Below are positions 13,691 to 53,484 of a DNA stretch of 64,000 nt, in pieces. The position numbers were made by a program, and so were the translations under genes. The stretch's first letter is position 1. Each line of letters begins with the position of its first letter. The stretch is from Candidatus Babelota bacterium (lineage in GTDB: Bacteria; Babelota; Babeliae; Babelales; Vermiphilaceae). The DNA is taken from contig JBMOLF010000010.1 of NCBI GenBank assembly GCA_049325595.1, forward strand, positions 1 through 64,000. The letters run 5' to 3'. The notes under the pieces are model-generated. The model saw only the letters and a program-made list of their open reading frames with translations. It was not told where the DNA came from and ran no database searches.

Positions 13691-14128
13691 ATGTTGAGCT
13701 CAATTAGCTATTTTTTATTATCTCAATGGTTATGGAATATTACCTGGGGAATATACCACATACCGCTGAATATCTTTTTCATGTATGTTTTGTTGCGTAT
13801 TACTCATCATGCTCCTAAATTGCATCTTTTCCTTTTAACGTTTAGTGCCAATATTTTTTCATTTATTGTGTATTCAGCTTTTGTAGTTGGGGTACTTATT
13901 TTTGGATGTGGAATACAATATTTTCCCCATCAATGCCCTGTTATGTCTTCCATTACACGTCTTCAGGCAAGTTTGTTTATGGGAGTAATTTATTCAATAA
14001 TTCAAAGTGGTTTTTTCTTATTTGTTCCACGCAAGTATTCAATTTATTGGGTACATGCGCTGGGATTTGCCATTTTAAGCAATTTGCTTGCGGGAATGAT
14101 GGTGTATAAAATGCTGCCAAGTTATTAA
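13691..14128 (+). CDS. Four-TM membrane protein
   Basis: SD GAGGTG; hydrophobic segments. Confidence 0.7.
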   Translation: MLSSISYFLLSQWLWNITWGIYHIPLNIFFMYVLLRITHHAPKLHLFLLTFSANIFSFIVYSAFVVGVLIFGCGIQYFPHQCPVMSSITRLQASLFMGVIYSIIQSGFFLFVPRKYSIYWVHALGFAILSNLLAGMMVYKMLPSY

Positions 14129-22241: not shown

Positions 22242-23195
22242 ATGAAAAAATTAAAAAATATTTTTCTCGGATTCTGTTTGTTTTCTGCATTATTTGTGAA
22301 ATCAGCTGTTTATAATGATAATGAGCTTAGAAAATTAGCTGAAGAAGTAGAAAAATTAATAGATGGATGTAATAAAAATAATGAAGAAAGATACCAAATA
22401 ATCATTGAACTGGTAAATAACCTTGGAATTAAAGAAGGTATTGATACTGAGACATCTATTGATAAACAAGCAAATCCAAAACCATTAACTGAAGATGAAA
22501 AGCTTATATCGGTAAAAGATCGAATTTTAAAAAAATATAAAGGCGATTTGCCTTCTGCGATTGATGATTTAATTTTTTATTTTAGTAACTATGAAAAATG
22601 TAGAGAGAATCAAATATCTATAGCTAATCGTCTTTTAATGCACGGAAATTCTGATGCGCGCAAATATCATTTGTTTAAAACTTTAGCACAAGAATTACAG
22701 GTAAAAAGTTATTCATTTTCAGCAGCTGTTCTTGAAGAAGCTGATATAAACACCGCTTACAAAAAAATAAGAACCGTATTTAATAATGCTAAAAATATGA
22801 ACGAGCCAGTTTTTATTTTTATAGATGACATAGAATTATTAAATATAAAAAATTATTCAAAATTAAAAATGCTTCTTGAAGAAATTGAAGATGCAAGAGA
22901 AAATCACAATCTTTTTGTTTTCGCATCCACAAATAATACTTTAAGTAATATTGATACTGCAATTAAAAATATATTTGCAGGAACTATGTGCGAAATTAAA
23001 CCGTTAAATGCTTCAGAGCGTGCAAAATTATTTGAAGAAGTTTTTGCTAACAATCAATGTAAAATTAGTGAACAAGTAGCAAAAAAATTAGCCCGTATTG
23101 GAGGGCCTATAGAGAAAGTTGATTTGTTTGAAGAAAGTGTCAAAAAAACTACACAATTGCGTGCATTTAAAGAACAATTAGAACAGGTTAAATAA
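22242..23195 (+). CDS. Secreted degenerate AAA+ ATPase-like protein
   Basis: Signal peptide; LLMHGNSDARKY (broken Walker A); FIFIDDIE (Walker B); ASTNN..IDTAI (second region of homology without Arg fingers). Confidence 0.7.
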   Translation: MKKLKNIFLGFCLFSALFVKSAVYNDNELRKLAEEVEKLIDGCNKNNEERYQIIIELVNNLGIKEGIDTETSIDKQANPKPLTEDEKLISVKDRILKKYKGDLPSAIDDLIFYFSNYEKCRENQISIANRLLMHGNSDARKYHLFKTLAQELQVKSYSFSAAVLEEADINTAYKKIRTVFNNAKNMNEPVFIFIDDIELLNIKNYSKLKMLLEEIEDARENHNLFVFASTNNTLSNIDTAIKNIFAGTMCEIKPLNASERAKLFEEVFANNQCKISEQVAKKLARIGGPIEKVDLFEESVKKTTQLRAFKEQLEQVK

Positions 23196-47063: not shown

Positions 47064-48167
47064 ATGAAGCACTTAATTATATGTTTATTATTGGGAGCCA
47101 GCGCTATAAGCGCTGCTCCCAAGGTTGCGCTTATTACGGGTGTGACGGGCCAAGATGGATCGTATCTTGCTGAGTTTTTATTAAAAAAGGGGTATATAGT
47201 ACACGGTATTAAACGTCGTGGGTCATTGATTAATAATACACAACGAGTTGATCATATTTATGAAGATCCACATTGTGCTAAACAATTTTTTCTACACTAT
47301 GGTGAAATGACTGATGCAGCTAATTTAGTGCGCATTATTCAAGAAGTGCAACCGGATGAAATTTACAATTTAGCTGCTCAAAGCCACGTGCAAGTTTCAT
47401 TTGAGGAGCCTATTTATACAGCACATGCTGATGGTGTTGGTGCGCTTAATATTTTAGAAGCTATTCGTATTTTGGGTATGACTAAAAAAGTGCGTTTTTA
47501 TCAAGCATCAACCAGCGAAATGTTTGGAAAAGTACAAGAAATACCACAAAAAGAAACCACACCGTTTTATCCTCGTTCTCCCTATGGTGTTTCTAAATTG
47601 TATGCGCATTGGATTACCAAAAATTTCCGTGAAGCCTATGGTATTTTTGCTGTCAGTGGTATTTTATTTAATCACGAATCACCACGACGCGGCGAAACAT
47701 TTGTAACCAGAAAAATTGCTCGGGCTGTTGCACGTATTGCAGCTGGATACCATGAAATTCTGTACCTTGGTAACCTAGATGCTTGTCGTGACTGGGGCCA
47801 TGCTCGCGATTACGTAGAGGCAATGTGGCTTATGTTGCAACAAGAAACACCAGAAGATTTTGTAATAGCGACAGGAGAAACTCATTCAGTTCGTGAATTT
47901 GTAGAACTCTCATTTAAAGAAGTTGGCATTGAAATTGAATGGACAGGTACTGGTCTTGATGAAAAAGGTATTGATAAAGCAACGGGTAAAGTATTAGTAA
48001 AAGTTGACCCGCGTTACTTTAGACCAACCGAAGTTGATTATTTGCTTGGTGATGCAACAAAAGCAAATAATATTCTAGGATGGAAGCCGCGCACTACCTT
48101 CTGTGAACTCGTTACCGAAATGGTACAAGCAGAAGTCCGTGCTTTAGATATCGATTTAAATTTTTAA
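47064..48167 (+). CDS. gmd: GDP-mannose 4,6-dehydratase with signal peptide
   Basis: [40 protein letters not shown] and RPTEVD motifs. Confidence 0.96.
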
Positions 48168-48185
48168 AAAATTAATTATTTATAA

Positions 48186-48227
48186 AAAAAATAAAGAGAG
48201 CGCATTAAAACGCTCTCTTTATTTTTT
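48186..48227. terminator. Bidirectional terminator
   Basis: aaaaaataaagagagcg ... cgctctctttatttttt. Confidence 0.75.
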
Positions 48228-48241
48228 AGGCAAAGGAACAC

Positions 48242-48430
48242 TTACGATTTTTTGTGTTCTTTTTTTTGCTCATTTTGTTTACCATGCTCTTGGCCATGTT
48301 TCCAGCCTTGAGTAGTACCAAATTTGCCTTCTTGTTTTTGTTCTTGGCCGTGTTTTACATGACCTTGTTTTTCATGTTGAGTTTTCTCGTGTTGACCTTG
48401 GCCATTTCCTTTTTTGAATTGGTTAGCCAT
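48242..48430 (-). CDS. Small hydrophilic Q/K/E/G/H-rich low-complexity protein
   Basis: SD AAAGGGG; repeats QHEK and KHGQE; ends just before a terminator. Confidence 0.65.
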   Translation of the reverse strand: MANQFKKGNGQGQHEKTQHEKQGHVKHGQEQKQEGKFGTTQGWKHGQEHGKQNEQKKEHKKS

Positions 48431-48714
48431 TGTTACCCCTTTTTTGGTTTAAATAATATTAACAGATAAAAAAGTTTCTATAATTTAGGTTTTTATAGTT
48501 ATTTTTTTATATTTTAATAATAAATCATATTTGTAACAAAATGCAAGGGTTTACAAAAATTAAAAACTAGTAAATAAAAGCGTTTTTTGGGTTTTTTTAA
48601 AGTGACTATAAATTCATATTTGTGGTGATTTTAATTTCTTTTAAATTTACGAGTTTCATAAAAAGATTTATAGTAAAATTATTAGAAAACACACCCTTCT
48701 TTTTGAGGTTCATT

Positions 48715-49911
48715 ATGATAATTTCTCTGCGTTATTTTTTGTTTCTTATATTGTTAACGAGTGTTGGTTGGACGGGATGGGGCATTTATAGTTATTTTTT
48801 TGATCCTACCCTTCCTTCTATTACCATTAGTGGCATAGAAAATGATTGTTATTATGCGGGTGATATTCAATGTGGTGTATCCAGCAATAAAACAGGACAG
48901 CTTTCCATTTGGCTTGATGGGCAACCGTTAATTAATAGTTTTAAGCTTGGTGCTAAAGAGCAAGATCATCCTTTTACCGTGCCAACTAAAACAATTACCA
49001 ACGGTAAACATGTTCTCAAAGTTGAATTGCAAGATAGCACCTGGCGAAAAAATAAAGCAGTTGTTGAAAAAAACTTTTGTGTAGACAATGTTCCCTTACA
49101 AGCGGCATTTGTTCGTTCTGAAGCAGATTATAAAGTCTTTCAAGGAAGAACTTTACATTTACAATTTCAAGTAAACAAAGAGATTCAAGAAGCTCAAATT
49201 AATACGTTGTCTCGTTCATTTGATTGTTTTCCTGAAACAAAAGATTCGATGATATACGAGTGCTTTATTCCAATTTCTTGTGAAGAAATGCCTAATGAAT
49301 ATTTACTTTCAGTAGTGGTAAAAGATAAAGTTGGTAACGCGCTTAATCTAGATAGCAAGTTTCAGGTGGTGATGTATCCATTTAAAAAACAAGCTTTACA
49401 TGTTAGTTCAGAAAAAGTTGCAGAGGAAAAAGCAATAAGTCTTTCTGGGCAGCTTCTTGAGCAAGAACTTGAAAAGCTTGTACAAAATTCACCTCGACAA
49501 AAATTATGGCGCGGTGCATTTTGTGAGCCGATCGAAGTTGCTCGCGTGACCTGTGAATTTGGTACCATTCGAACGACTAAAGAAAAAGGTCGTTACATGC
49601 ATAAAGGGATAGATGTAATTAATACGCCAAAATGCGTAGTATGGGCGCCTCAAGATGGTATTGTAGTACTTAAAGAACGCTATGAGTTTAGTGGGAATAC
49701 CGTGGTAATTGACCATGGCATGGGTGTGCTTTCCTTATTTTTCCACCTAGATAGTTTTGCAGACATATCTGTTGGTCAAAGAATTGCAAAAGGCAATCCA
49801 CTAGGAACAATGGGAATGACTGGTTATGCGACCGGATACCATTTACATTGGGAAATGCGAGTAGCTAATATTCAAGTTGATCCAATGCAATGGACTAAGC
49901 CTAACTTTTAA
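48715..49911 (+). CDS. M23 family metallopeptidase with N-terminal anchor (start ~48715)
   Basis: HKGID, GNTVVIDHG, FFHL and ATGYHLHWE motifs. Confidence 0.9.
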   Translation: MIISLRYFLFLILLTSVGWTGWGIYSYFFDPTLPSITISGIENDCYYAGDIQCGVSSNKTGQLSIWLDGQPLINSFKLGAKEQDHPFTVPTKTITNGKHVLKVELQDSTWRKNKAVVEKNFCVDNVPLQAAFVRSEADYKVFQGRTLHLQFQVNKEIQEAQINTLSRSFDCFPETKDSMIYECFIPISCEEMPNEYLLSVVVKDKVGNALNLDSKFQVVMYPFKKQALHVSSEKVAEEKAISLSGQLLEQELEKLVQNSPRQKLWRGAFCEPIEVARVTCEFGTIRTTKEKGRYMHKGIDVINTPKCVVWAPQDGIVVLKERYEFSGNTVVIDHGMGVLSLFFHLDSFADISVGQRIAKGNPLGTMGMTGYATGYHLHWEMRVANIQVDPMQWTKPNF

Positions 49912-49934
49912 ATAAAAAAACGGGGGAGTAGTAG

Positions 49935-50432
49935 ATGATTTTTAGGATAAATGAGAGTGACAGAAAAAATATATTAAACAGATATTTACCCTATTTTTTA
50001 CTGCTTCTTATTATAAGCTTTTTATGTGCAGGATGGTTTGTTATCTACTACCATCCTTTACAATTAAAAGTGCATACTCGCACAGCTCATCAGCAACAAT
50101 TATTGCAAAAATATTGCACTACATTAAAACGACAACAAGCTGAATTGCTACCAGTTGTACCAGAGCTTGAAACAGCTACTATCCCCGAGCTTATTCAAGA
50201 AATTATAGAAATGGTTGACCAAAACAATTTAGCGCTCATTTCATGTGATTTACATAAAAAAAATAATCTCATTTATCATTGTAACTTGTCATATCACGGT
50301 TTAATTGAACAATCATATACGATGCTTAATAATCTTGAGCAAAAGAATATCAAAATTAAAAAAATTTCAATGAAAAATTCTGAATCTGGTAGTGCAATGC
50401 ACCGTCTGATCATAGAATTGCAACAAGCTTAA
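49935..50432 (+). CDS. PilO/GspM-like bitopic protein
   Basis: One TM, coiled coil, then a ferredoxin-like pattern (L.Y.G......ML..LE). Confidence 0.45.
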   Translation: MIFRINESDRKNILNRYLPYFLLLLIISFLCAGWFVIYYHPLQLKVHTRTAHQQQLLQKYCTTLKRQQAELLPVVPELETATIPELIQEIIEMVDQNNLALISCDLHKKNNLIYHCNLSYHGLIEQSYTMLNNLEQKNIKIKKISMKNSESGSAMHRLIIELQQA

Positions 50433-50445
50433 TAAGCTTATTGTG

Positions 50446-50483
50446 TCAAAAAAAACCCTTCAACTTGAATAAGCTGAAGGGTT
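50446..50483 (-). terminator. Intrinsic terminator (minus strand)
   Basis: aacccttcagctt-attc-aagttgaagggtt followed by a T-tract on the minus strand. Confidence 0.75.
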
Positions 50484-50542
50484 AGGGGGTGAACAATACA
50501 AAGAGGTATTGTTCGTTTAGGGATTTTTTTAACACGTAGTTC
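50447..50542 (-). ncRNA. Candidate ~95-nt small RNA
   Basis: Own promoter (50549-50577), internal hairpin gaacaatac/gtattgttc and a terminator; no SD-led ORF. Confidence 0.55.
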
Positions 50543-50548
50543 GTGGAG

Positions 50549-50577
50549 ATCCTAACAACCAACTTTTTTATTGTCAA
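50549..50577 (-). promoter_or_regulatory. Near-consensus sigma70 promoter with extended -10
   Basis: TTGACA-17 nt-TAGGAT with TGn before the -10 box. Confidence 0.7.
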
Positions 50578-50582
50578 GTTTC

Positions 50583-51356
50583 TCACATGTTACATGTCTT
50601 ATTCTGTTTGTTGAAAAAAAATTGACGCAAAGGAGAATGAACAAGTCTGAGTTTTACTAATGAGCTGAGCATGCGCAAACCACCTTTAAAAAGCTTTAAT
50701 TTACTATCAGCTTGATCATGCCAAACAGTAGGAATCTCTTTAATCTTTGCCTTTTGTTTTTTGCATAAATAAAGCAGTTCTACATCAAATGCCCATTGCG
50801 TAACCGTAAATTTATCGATGATAGCCTGAATAACGGGTCGTTTAAAAATTTTAGCTCCACATTGAAAATCTGCATACCGTATGCCAAATAACATCCATGC
50901 CAGATTTTCATAAACCAGCTTGCTTCCCATTCGCTTTATAAAAGGTCGTGCTGGGCTTACGTGCGCACCCTTCATATATCTACTTGCAATGATACCATCG
51001 CACGATGAAATCTGCTCAATGAGCTGAAAAAAATATTCAGGTCGGGTAGCCATATCAGCATCGACAAATCCAATAAGATCATTTGTCCCCTGCAAAGCAT
51101 GTGAAAATCCTTGCGCTATAGCAAACCCTTTGCCTGCTTGTTCATAATTAAGCACGACAATTTGTTGGTGCTTTTGAGCAAATTGATGTGCAACCTCGAT
51201 GGTTTTATCAGAACAACCATTTAACACAATTATAAATTCATAATCATGTATTACTTGTTGTTCTTTTTTTTCGTGAAAAAATTGACAATAATTATCAACT
51301 GTTTTACCAAGTCGACGTTCTTCATTATGGGCTGGGATCACAATACTAATTTTCAT
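50583..51356 (-). CDS. Dolichyl/polyprenyl-phosphate glycosyltransferase-like GT2
   Basis: IPAHNEE, GKG.A, FVDADMAT, ASRY, DFQCGAK and FDVELL motifs; no signal peptide. Confidence 0.88.
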   Translation of the reverse strand: MKISIVIPAHNEERRLGKTVDNYCQFFHEKKEQQVIHDYEFIIVLNGCSDKTIEVAHQFAQKHQQIVVLNYEQAGKGFAIAQGFSHALQGTNDLIGFVDADMATRPEYFFQLIEQISSCDGIIASRYMKGAHVSPARPFIKRMGSKLVYENLAWMLFGIRYADFQCGAKIFKRPVIQAIIDKFTVTQWAFDVELLYLCKKQKAKIKEIPTVWHDQADSKLKLFKGGLRMLSSLVKLRLVHSPLRQFFFNKQNKTCNM

Positions 51357-51376
51357 GGCTACCTTTTATGCCCAAT

Positions 51377-52180
51377 TTAGGCTTCAATATCAGCAAGTTG
51401 TTCTTCGTGGCATCCTTGCTTTATTATTTCTTCAATTTGCTCTAAAGTGGCTTTTTTTCGAGCTAAATAATATTTATATAAAATACCATCGTGTAAATTC
51501 TGGATTCCAGTGTAGCCAGCTTCTAAACTCCAGCGCAATATTTTGCCCCAAAATAATGCAAAGTAGATAATCATCACAATCTCATTTGGTTCTTCATGAA
51601 CTGAATAGAGATTATTGTTATGACGCACTACATGAAAAGATGATGTTGATCGATTGGTAGCTTTGTTGGCAGATTTTAGTATTGCCCAATGAGCTTGTTT
51701 AGGAAGAAAATAAGATCCGATTAAAGATACTAATGAACCGGTGCTTAAAGCAGCAAGATATTTTTTTTCGGTTTTATAATTAAAAAGCAAATTAGAAAGA
51801 TAACCAATGCCTGATATACTTAGCAAGCTAGCGCAAATTTTTGCTATTCCCTTGCTAATTAAAATGGGATGTTTTTTTATATCACTTGCTAATTGCTTAT
51901 TTATCGCATCTATTTCATCTTTGGTAAGTGATTCAAGATATTTTTTTTCATTACGATAATTAAAGCGAATTTTCTTTTCTCGAGTATTGTATCGATTGTC
52001 AAAACTCTCTGAAAAGCGTTCTGCGTCAAGACCTTCTTTGATTAATTCATCAATTTCAGGGCCAGCGTAACAGGCATTTCTTATTTTATCAAAAAATTGA
52101 AGCCAACTTCCTTGATAGGTTGCTTGAGTCATAGGTGTCATAAATAAGAGCAATAAAGCCTTACGAGGGCAATAGTTCAT
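51377..52180 (-). CDS. Hypothetical protein, signal peptide plus TM segments (start ATG 52180)
   Basis: Leader MNYCPRKALLLLFMTPMTQA. The longer ORF would overlap the divergent methyltransferase. Confidence 0.65.
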   Translation of the reverse strand: MNYCPRKALLLLFMTPMTQATYQGSWLQFFDKIRNACYAGPEIDELIKEGLDAERFSESFDNRYNTREKKIRFNYRNEKKYLESLTKDEIDAINKQLASDIKKHPILISKGIAKICASLLSISGIGYLSNLLFNYKTEKKYLAALSTGSLVSLIGSYFLPKQAHWAILKSANKATNRSTSSFHVVRHNNNLYSVHEEPNEIVMIIYFALFWGKILRWSLEAGYTGIQNLHDGILYKYYLARKKATLEQIEEIIKQGCHEEQLADIEA

Positions 52181-52258
52181 GTTGTAACCTTTATTAATTT
52201 TAAGTATGTTAGAAAATGAATACAGCCAATAATAAAATATCTTTGCTAAGTACTCAAT

Positions 52259-52918
52259 ATGAAACAGATTAAACATCATCAAATTCTTGAGACAGTTAAA
52301 CCTTATTTGCCCAATGCTCCTATTGTAGTTGAAGCTGGTGCATTTGATGGTGCTGATACTAAAAAAATGGCATTGTTGTGGCCTGAAGGCACCATTCATG
52401 CATTTGAACCCGTGCCCAAAAATTTTGAGCTGTTAAAAAATAATACTGTTGCGTATAAAAATATTTGCTGTTATCCACTCGCATTAAGTAACACTACCGG
52501 TTATGCAACTTTTTATTCAGCTATTAATCCTGCAAAACCAGATAAACCATGTCAGGCTGGCTCACTATTAGCGCCCAAAGAGCGATTGAGCCATTCGCCA
52601 ATGGTTTATCAAGAAACTATTCAGGTGCCGGCTATTACGCTTGATGATTGGGCTGAGAAAGAAGAAGTTAATCAAGTGGATTTTTTATGGCTTGATATGC
52701 AAGGGCATGAGTTATCGGTGATTAAAAGTTCTCCTGTTATCATGACTACCGTAAAAGCAATTTATACAGAGGTTCATTTTATAGAGGCTTATGAAGGCCA
52801 ATCTTCCTATCAAGAATTAAAAAATTATTTAGAATCTATTGGATTTACTATGGTAGCCCGTGATTTTACCGAGCCACCATCTTGGTTTTTTGGGAATGCA
52901 TTATTTGTACGTTTATAA
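52259..52918 (+). CDS. FkbM-family SAM-dependent methyltransferase
   Basis: VEAGAFDG, AFEP, TLDDW and LWLDMQGHE motifs. Confidence 0.88.
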   Translation: MKQIKHHQILETVKPYLPNAPIVVEAGAFDGADTKKMALLWPEGTIHAFEPVPKNFELLKNNTVAYKNICCYPLALSNTTGYATFYSAINPAKPDKPCQAGSLLAPKERLSHSPMVYQETIQVPAITLDDWAEKEEVNQVDFLWLDMQGHELSVIKSSPVIMTTVKAIYTEVHFIEAYEGQSSYQELKNYLESIGFTMVARDFTEPPSWFFGNALFVRL

Positions 52919-52920
52919 GA

Positions 52921-53484
52921 TTAATTTTTAAATCCACTATTAATCCGTTGAATTTTTTTACCATACATCATAACTAAAAGTCCTGGTAAAACCCACGTTA
53001 AGGATTTCTTTTTTAGATTTTCATCAGCAAGATGGGTAGTTAAAAATGTATAAGGAGTAGGATTATCAATGGTAGGTAATTTATCACTTAATATTTTTAC
53101 AATAACGTTACAATAAGTTTTCTGAAATTGCTCCCAGCTTAAACTGTCTTGTTTTAATAATGCTTGGTAATAATCTTCTTCAAATTCTTTAATTTCACAT
53201 ATCTTATTCAAAATGTTACTTGCGTTGTCGGTAATGCTTCTTTTAAAGATAGAGCGATGATTTTTAGGCAAAACATTAATTTGATTATGAGTTTTGGTAA
53301 TAATTTCTTGCAAAGTAACATTTGACCAATTATTGGGATATGCTAATGCCTGTACAAATAAGGTATTTAAGTCGGTAATCTCTTGCGTATCTAATTCGAC
53401 TTGATCTAAGCGGCATAGTGTTTGTTTTTCTTGCGCGGCAATAGTGCCGGTAATAAAAAATAATAATATGTAAATAATTTTCAT
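52921..53484 (-). CDS. Hypothetical secreted protein (start ~53484)
   Basis: Leader MKIIYILLFFITGTIAA; weak similarity to 53662-54273. Confidence 0.65.
   Translation of the reverse strand: MKIIYILLFFITGTIAAQEKQTLCRLDQVELDTQEITDLNTLFVQALAYPNNWSNVTLQEIITKTHNQINVLPKNHRSIFKRSITDNASNILNKICEIKEFEEDYYQALLKQDSLSWEQFQKTYCNVIVKILSDKLPTIDNPTPYTFLTTHLADENLKKKSLTWVLPGLLVMMYGKKIQRINSGFKN

Follow-up and report, generated by a model that had tools for sequence, protein, structure and literature searches.

A putative anti-Shine-Dalgarno small RNA conserved in Candidatus Babelota, with lon, ftsA and ftsQ as candidate targets

The window analysed here, a stretch of 64,000 nucleotides from a Candidatus Babelota bacterium, belongs to a 1.29-Mb assembly (the source genome, G000), and all five-digit coordinates of the RNA gene follow the numbering of the window. 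Between a glycosyltransferase gene and a convergent operon lies a small RNA gene on the minus strand. An earlier note on this DNA had read a promoter, two C-rich tracts, a hairpin and a terminator from the letters, and all of these parts were found at their positions on that strand. The features are:

50447..50542, minus strand: small RNA gene, ~96 nt in G000, with a 5′ end presumed ~7 nt past the -10 box
50572..50577, minus strand: -35 box TTGACA, from the promoter scan
50549..50557, minus strand: extended -10 box (TG, then TAGGAT), with a 17-nt spacer to the -35 box
50525..50542, minus strand: AU-rich variable 5′ leader, 24% GC
50517..50524, minus strand: site A, unpaired UCCCU(A/G), C-rich, present in 103 of 105 loci and lacking in genus g38
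50491..50514, minus strand: helix P1, 9 bp, with a variable 6-nt loop (50500-50505)
50483..50490, minus strand: site B, unpaired C-tract plus UA, the predicted seed for AGGGGG ribosome-binding sites
50448..50483, minus strand: helix P2 / intrinsic terminator, stem 50483-50454, U-tract 50455-50448
48622..49911, plus strand: M23 peptidase gene, in the convergent operon, a conserved landmark of the RNA locus
49935..50432, plus strand: 165-aa membrane-anchored ORF, convergent to the RNA gene and its usual neighbour, with a weak GspM-like match (E 0.11)
50583..51356, minus strand: GT2 glycosyltransferase gene, upstream of the RNA gene

The sigma-70-type promoter TTGACA-17-TAGGAT proposed earlier was confirmed: of the 26 promoter-like sites in 48000-53000, it alone reaches 10 of 12 matches. 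In its strict form it is found just twice in the whole 1.29-Mb assembly; the other occurrence (G000:C9:85360, minus strand) stands before a 263-aa membrane protein that is SPFH/prohibitin-like by eye. A strict promoter lies at most 110 nt upstream in 100 of the 105 homolog loci, the fixed positions of the promoter profile over these loci being at 100% by construction, and the leader between -10 box and core measures 14 to 75 nt across homologs. Control by an alternative sigma factor was ruled out in G000: a single sigma-70 protein (region 2) was found, and the tRNA promoters are of the same type as that of the RNA. In a second genome of the phylum, G053, two sigma-70 genes lie side by side.

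Of the 110 locus rows examined, 100 have a convergent gene downstream of the RNA, and the gene upstream differs from row to row (some genomes stand twice among the rows); the GT2 gene adjoins the RNA in only 3 rows, all from the source genus, and in most loci no co-oriented gene follows the RNA. With its own promoter, a convergent gene downstream and a varying gene upstream, the RNA is neither a leader nor an attenuator. A 791-nt contig from one sequencing run, the kind of which was guessed, covers the convergent ORF, the RNA and the end of the GT2 gene. Among the 40 sequencing-run differences listed, 6 fall in the P1 loop and none elsewhere in the promoter or RNA core.

The 96-mer is predicted to fold into two hairpins of −28.1 kcal/mol (z = −6.0, equalled by none of 200 shuffles), and the opposite strand gives z = −3.2. 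Covariation was then looked at in Dependentiae homologs, and compensatory changes were found in both helices. In P1, 6 of the 9 pairs show two-sided changes and 99.5% of cells are paired; in P2, 2 of the 11 pairs do, and 8 of the 11 are invariant across 70 rows. Taken together, the 8 pairs with two-sided changes and 99.4% of paired cells top all 500 shuffles and all slid controls, in a test that is inflated by kinship among the rows. Where only one side of a pair changed, 50 cells became G-U and 3 became A-C, and since G-U wobbles work only on the minus strand, the strand of the RNA is fixed. Among the 16 homologs that diverge most, the sequence of P1 is replaced but still pairs, P2 varies and covaries, the linker varies, and the C-tract between the helices persists while site A is lost in one genus. 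P1 is thus a structural helix, the sequence of which is free to covary. Over the 105 loci the C-tract of site B counts five C in 16, six in 84 and seven in 5. Opening sites A and B costs less than 1 kcal/mol (0.2 for site A), against more than 10 for the helix arms. The near-invariant P2 stem hints at a bound protein; pairing at site B leaves its conservation unexplained. We regard the RNA gene as almost certainly real.

To what extent the RNA is shared was measured in three ways. By blastn, one strong match (E ≤ 2e-9) was obtained in 49 of 60 relatives. An exact 24-26-nt pattern yielded 105 stretches in 185,579 GTDB genomes, at most of which the neighbouring genes are the same; among the 80 matches listed, the informative titles are Babelota, Babeliales, Dependentiae or TM6, including Vermiphilus pyriformis, the rest being loose MAG labels. 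A covariance model built on 70 homologs found matches in 142 of 150 phylum genomes (G000 counted), with one full-length hit each and four weak second hits that were terminator-only. On one contig (L062, L099) the RNA occurs twice, in nearly identical copies that lie ~10 kb from each other and point in opposite directions. In IMG/VR viruses the pattern had 32 matches, of which 0/32 scored with the covariance model.

The remaining 8 of the 150 genomes had no model match, and a laxer model search in five RNA-less genomes gave a best E of 0.09. In those inspected the M23 operon is kept and the RNA gene deleted; because the landmark stays and the RNA gene is gone, the absence is a real loss. Model, pattern and promoter searches found no divergent copy in the RNA-less genomes except a weak site in G130 (L174:1501-1595, E 0.09), where a CCUCC-containing stretch precedes a terminator, possibly a replaced or an unrelated sRNA. 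One genome counted as RNA-less, G150, is a 60-contig assembly in which an assembly gap is possible, and its congener G083 has the RNA. Of 58 Babelota genomes that have FtsA loci, 45 entered a quick tree (a filter dropped the others, G053 and G150 included), in which six RNA-less genomes are spread over three distinct clades; each of these clades has an RNA-bearing genome as its sister. G053, a single-contig genome with no detectable RNA, makes a fourth loss case. The best reading of this distribution is that the RNA was probably ancestral to Ca. Babelota.

No Rfam family reached its gathering score in the window and no known housekeeping RNA was recognised; the best local matches were generic terminator hits (E 0.05-0.11), and ARAGORN reported neither tRNA nor tmRNA in the window. 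SRP RNA, tmRNA and RNase P were ruled out as identities, as SRP, tmRNA and an RNase P motif sit elsewhere in G000. 6S RNA (RF00013), an extended rod of about 180 nt with a bubble at its centre, was ruled out on the two short separate helices and on the lack of an RF00013 match in G000. The internal 17-codon ORF is unconserved and was rejected as a peptide gene: an in-frame start is lacking in 41 of 97 homologs, 7 are open, and the rest have 7-36 codons, with an AUG ahead of site A in 42 of 97. Ten nucleotides shared between the P1/site B junction (50483-50495) and the tRNA-His 3′ end (G000:C17:55919-55994) are at chance level, and so is the likeness of both C-sites to telomere-repeat complements. 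A search of G000 for a long perfect antisense partner gave none that was convincing, the best match being 15 nt inside a coding region. An intergenic stretch (G000:C10:160590-160747, plus strand) matches sites B and A in two-arm order with no co-oriented gene downstream, and may be a sponge, or else belong to the mRNA of the upstream transporter as its 3′ end. Neither Rfam 15 nor the literature searched (outside subscription papers and supplementary motif tables, and with PMC4776705 in its accessible part) contained a prior description. We conclude that this is a new family of sRNAs that probably works in a known way, phylum-wide and with specific candidate targets.

The 16S tail of G000 is canonical and AAGGA is the commonest Shine-Dalgarno sequence (SD); SDs with at least 4 G in a run precede 82 of 1203 genes (about 7%), and with at least 5 G, 31. 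As sites A and B are open and the helix arms costly to open, the seed should read such G-run SDs. The earlier note had named particular SDs of this sort. Those before ugd and the genes at 22242 and 49935 do exist, with site-B pairing ranks of 29, 29 and 41 of 1205, but AAGAGG before gmd and the gene at 13691 pairs poorly (ranks 252 and 92 of 1205). The note's suggestion that secretome genes are controlled is not supported as a preference: by a crude rule based on hydrophobicity, 70 of 134 genes with a G-tract SD have a signal-peptide-like N-terminus, versus 306 of 596 with a canonical SD (p = 0.92). Secreted-protein genes with G-run SDs may be lineage-specific targets.

An accessibility-aware target scan of the single genome showed no dominant target, and site-B pairing within G000 ranked ftsA 14, lon 23, ftsQ 125 and ftsZ 899 of 1205. 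Because one genome cannot rank G-run genes, orthologs were compared across genomes: conserved G000 genes with G-rich SDs were taken, and their orthologs were read elsewhere, with start calls made by a 16S-pairing rule applied to all genes alike. Several candidates did not keep a run of at least 4 G in RNA-bearing genomes (efp 1/9, nusB 4/14, htpX 2/13, rpsG 0/12), and two more were dropped on follow-up, a GAF-like ORF (2/22) and uvrA (5/21). The neighbouring genes were also rejected as targets, with a G-class SD in 4 of 75 for the M23 gene and 8 of 44 for the 165-aa ORF family. For adk the count was 6 of 15 RNA-bearing genomes. When four genomes, each from a different family, were scanned without bias for AGGGGG ahead of ATG, 81 sites came up, 45 of them start-like; the scan recovered lon in 3 genomes, and ftsA, ftsQ, uvrA and the GAF-like ORF in 2 each. 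Further core targets may lie outside the sampled regions. The GAF-like protein, of ~180 aa and stand-alone (G000:C15:215064-215585, L586; L484), is present in 30 of 30 genomes searched, adjoins pyrH-tsf and dnaA in G000, and has no Pfam or NCBIfam name.

Three genes stood out. Runs of at least 4 G precede lon (TIGR00763) in 24 of 24 RNA-bearing genomes and then in 26 of 26 of an independent set (two more genomes were without a start call and one without a match), that is 50 of 50, and 47 of these 50 have at least 5 G; in RNA-less genomes the counts are 4/7 and 2/7. The lon match of G001 (L464, G001:C1:17677-18458) is split into two pieces that overlap and contain stops, which points to a frameshift or to a fault in the assembly. 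For ftsA, 17 of 24 and, in the second set, 19 of 24 (with two more genomes lacking a start call) make 36 of 48 RNA-bearing genomes, versus 2 of 8 RNA-less ones. The corresponding figures are 28/46 versus 1/8 for ftsQ, and 41/46 versus 2/8 when either ftsQ or ftsA is required. Among the controls, ftsZ carries such a run in 6 of 47 genomes and the second lon paralog in 2 of 20; 41 conserved families (60-kb samples, 21 genomes) have it in 49 of 510 cases, with ftsA as top outlier; and ten named bacteria outside the phylum have a G-run in 1 of 10 for ftsA and 0 of 5 for ftsQ. Ribosomal-protein genes avoid G-runs.

The runs lie mostly 3-9 nt ahead of the start codon, and the base preceding them is an A in 21 of 24 lon, 28 of 36 ftsA and 20 of 29 ftsQ genes, so that pairing extends to the U of site B. 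The median predicted pairing with site B weakens from RNA-bearing to RNA-less genomes, from −16.1 to −9.9 kcal/mol for lon, −13.6 to −7.0 for ftsA and −11.4 to −5.1 for ftsQ. For ftsZ the median is −4.1 kcal/mol, the background level, with no drop in RNA-less genomes. In three sister-lineage contrasts the ftsA and lon runs are longer on the RNA-bearing side: for ftsA 4 versus 2 and 3 (G037), 4 versus 3 and 3 (G022), and 5 versus 2 and 2 (G015); for lon, in the same pairs, 5 versus 4 and 4, 5 versus 3 and 3, and 6 versus 5 and 2.

The RNA-less set represents only about four independent losses, and Fisher p-values (0.001-0.014) overstate the differences. G053 retains G7 at ftsA and G5 at lon, the RNA-less G035 retains G5 at lon, and genus g57 retains G4 at lon. 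At ftsQ, a UAGGG preference (9/46) and a two-run pattern (21/46) are above background, but genomes without the RNA do not differ (1/8 and 3/8). At only 6-8 nt the seed is short and of low complexity, and no base-for-base covariation with the targets was seen. G-runs are also good SDs, so that selection for a strong or tuned ribosome-binding site (RBS) could mimic the signal; against the 16S tail the lon runs have a median of −11.9 kcal/mol (5th percentile), and pairing with that tail also falls for lon and ftsA in RNA-less genomes.

The gene called ftsQ here precedes ftsA (G000:C9:23819-24514, L248-L335), and ftsQ, ftsA and ftsZ are adjacent. Its mean column identity is ~22% and it has no Pfam match. 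Its profile hits only FtsQ structures (E 3e-4), and its predicted structure (pLDDT 89) matches FtsQ (E 6e-8). Based on these models, the Babelota gene ahead of ftsA is a highly diverged ftsQ that escapes Pfam. It goes unnamed in the division-gene lists of PMC4378268 and PMC6561590, in the text available of each.

From the gene, structure, strand, spread, losses and complementary G-runs, all of which were computed, we infer transcription, pairing in the cell and repression. Our preferred reading, to which we give a probability of roughly 0.6, is that the RNA is a trans-acting, base-pairing anti-SD repressor of lon, ftsA and ftsQ that works without Hfq. The housekeeping sigma factor would transcribe it from its strong tRNA-type promoter, and its own terminator would end the transcript. 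P1 and P2 would keep the C-tract of site B accessible, and site A would act as a second arm. By pairing with AGGGGG(G)-type SD variants, site B would compete with the 16S tail and lower translation initiation; pairing over the SD, aided by site A, would block 30S loading, by analogy with the biology of Yfr1 and RsaE. The core targets would be one of the two lon genes, ftsA and the divergent ftsQ, other G-run genes being possible lineage-specific targets. Hfq (PF17209) was found in 0 of 31 genomes, with positive controls, and an RRM protein, recognised by motif, is a possible chaperone. The earlier proposal of a stand-alone sRNA with exposed anti-SD-like C-tracts is supported by conservation, covariation, gene context and the complementary G-run sites on lon, ftsA and ftsQ.

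Three other explanations were weighed against this one. The RNA might serve as a scaffold or decoy for some protein, for instance ribosomal protein S1, Rho or the RRM protein, and RBS strength or another factor would then be the reason why the G-runs are kept. It would account for a P2 stem that is nearly invariant phylum-wide, beyond what a terminator needs, for a C-tract that slides between five and seven, for the G-runs retained in some RNA-less genomes and for their good pairing with the 16S tail; moreover Rho, RNase Y and a 111-aa RRM protein are presumably encoded in G000, judging from motifs. However, the highly expressed ribosomal-protein genes are without G-runs, as are ftsA and ftsQ of the outgroups but for one ftsA, the runs decay in most RNA-less lineages, and P2 does covary in the most divergent homologs, and we consider this explanation unlikely.

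A weaker candidate still is that the RNA does pair with the G-runs but protects, processes or fine-tunes the mRNAs, or buffers them together with a second Babelota anti-RBS sRNA. A constitutive-type promoter and a single sigma factor suit steady tuning over a switch, and the second anti-SD sRNA, located after recF, pairs comparably with some of the same sites; yet the G-runs sit mostly 3-9 nt before the start, where pairing blocks 30S in Yfr1 and RsaE, and we hold such tuning to be quite improbable. There is, finally, very little chance that no trans-acting RNA exists and that the locus is a terminator, an attenuator or a DNA element of its neighbours, or a short-peptide mRNA. Its position where a convergent operon ends (100 of 110 rows) and the AUG before site A in 42 of 97 homologs would fit, but the conserved promoter of its own, the wobble pairs that suit the minus strand only, the loci mostly without a co-oriented downstream gene, the unconserved ORF, and the deletion of the element while the operon stays all argue against it.

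The putative anti-SD repressor may help explain how the protist-parasitic Babelota (Dependentiae/TM6), which form filaments or large bodies as they grow, postpone cell division. Filamentous cells, septation at a late stage and a delay in division have been described for the phylum by Deeg et al. (PMC6561590, accessible part), and according to the accessible text of Pagnier et al. no unique gene explains late division (PMC4378268). For Babela massiliensis the same authors report that RNA of ftsA is there during the entire cycle and that RNA of ftsZ does not appear before 16 h (PMC4378268). We infer a role in division timing only tentatively, and think it doubtful, in the form of a developmental brake: the RNA would block translation of ftsQ and ftsA during intracellular growth, and its fall or titration would release division late. 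The untranslated ftsQ-ftsA mRNA would be cut short by Rho before ftsZ, and Lon would be held down; a late drop or titration of the RNA would then turn on divisome and Lon together, and the replication body would split. With the recF sRNA, this would make a two-RNA code sorting mRNAs by SD class. Such a brake would explain the ftsA-early, ftsZ-late RNA pattern in B. massiliensis, if that species carries the RNA, in bacteria with a single sigma factor; late ftsZ transcription could equally stem from a separate promoter. With a constitutive promoter the brake would require an antagonist or some control that depends on growth, and none was found. A look by motif for RelA/SpoT, DksA, LexA and CarD gave no match.

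Phylum-wide regulatory sRNAs are rare, and none was described for Babelota in the literature searched. The RNA is a testable candidate, with three conserved predicted sites on division and proteolysis genes and natural loss lineages as controls, and as the named Vermiphilus pyriformis record carries it, a cultured host system is at hand. It suggests that a reduced genome can use SD spelling as a regulatory address. A by-product is the Babelota ftsQ that Pfam misses.

Within the same genome a close comparison is the anti-RBS sRNA after recF (G000:C15, near 175560-175720). Both have a short core, an exposed RBS-mirroring stretch and a terminator end; they differ in sequence and locus, the recF sRNA mirroring the canonical AAGGAG-type RBS whereas the present RNA mirrors G-runs, and pairing of the recF sRNA with lon, ftsA and ftsQ hardly shifts between RNA-bearing and RNA-less genomes. 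The convergent GspM/PilO-like gene (49935-50432, plus strand; L038-L117) keeps a GGAGAGUA-type RBS in many Babelota, complementary to the core of the recF sRNA, and from its sequence looks like a conserved target of it. One ftsQ, that of G037, pairs with the recF sRNA at −29 kcal/mol.

Control of division genes by base pairing after transcription, as predicted here, has been described elsewhere. In the accessible parts of PMC10907235 and PMC8266604, DinR of Klebsiella is Hfq-dependent, occupies the RBS and, like the prophage-derived DicF of E. coli, acts on ftsZ, and StsR of Rhodobacter acts on the dcw 5′ UTR. By contrast with DicF and DinR, the ftsZ initiation region pairs only at background level with the Babelota RNA, which is a free-standing, phylum-wide gene with its own promoter and a variable upstream gene, rather than a product of prophage or mRNA 3′-end processing, in genomes where no Hfq was found. 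RsaE, one of the C-rich sRNAs of Staphylococcus and Bacillaceae, has an unpaired UCCC, is expressed independently of Hfq and blocks the initiation complex on several mRNAs (PMC2790875, accessible part). The UCCC motif is that of site A, present in 103 of 105 loci; no homology to RsaE/RoxS was detected, and RsaE targets are metabolic, while the pairing of the Babelota RNA is predicted. A further parallel in design is Yfr1 of cyanobacteria, phylum-wide and described as constitutive, which sequesters the RBS and has the envelope genes som (porins), mraY and murC as targets (PMC2796815, PMC6974561, accessible parts). Yfr1 and the Babelota RNA are both phylum-wide sRNAs with an unpaired conserved motif between two stem-loops. 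They share no sequence homology, Yfr1 with its ultraconserved 11-nt motif being absent from the 11 Rfam matches at E up to 10, and Yfr1 is cyanobacterial whereas the homologs of the present RNA lie in Babelota. Compared to Yfr1, the Babelota RNA has a plain C-tract as seed for G-run SDs, an extra C-rich arm 5′ of P1, and lon, ftsA and ftsQ as predicted targets.
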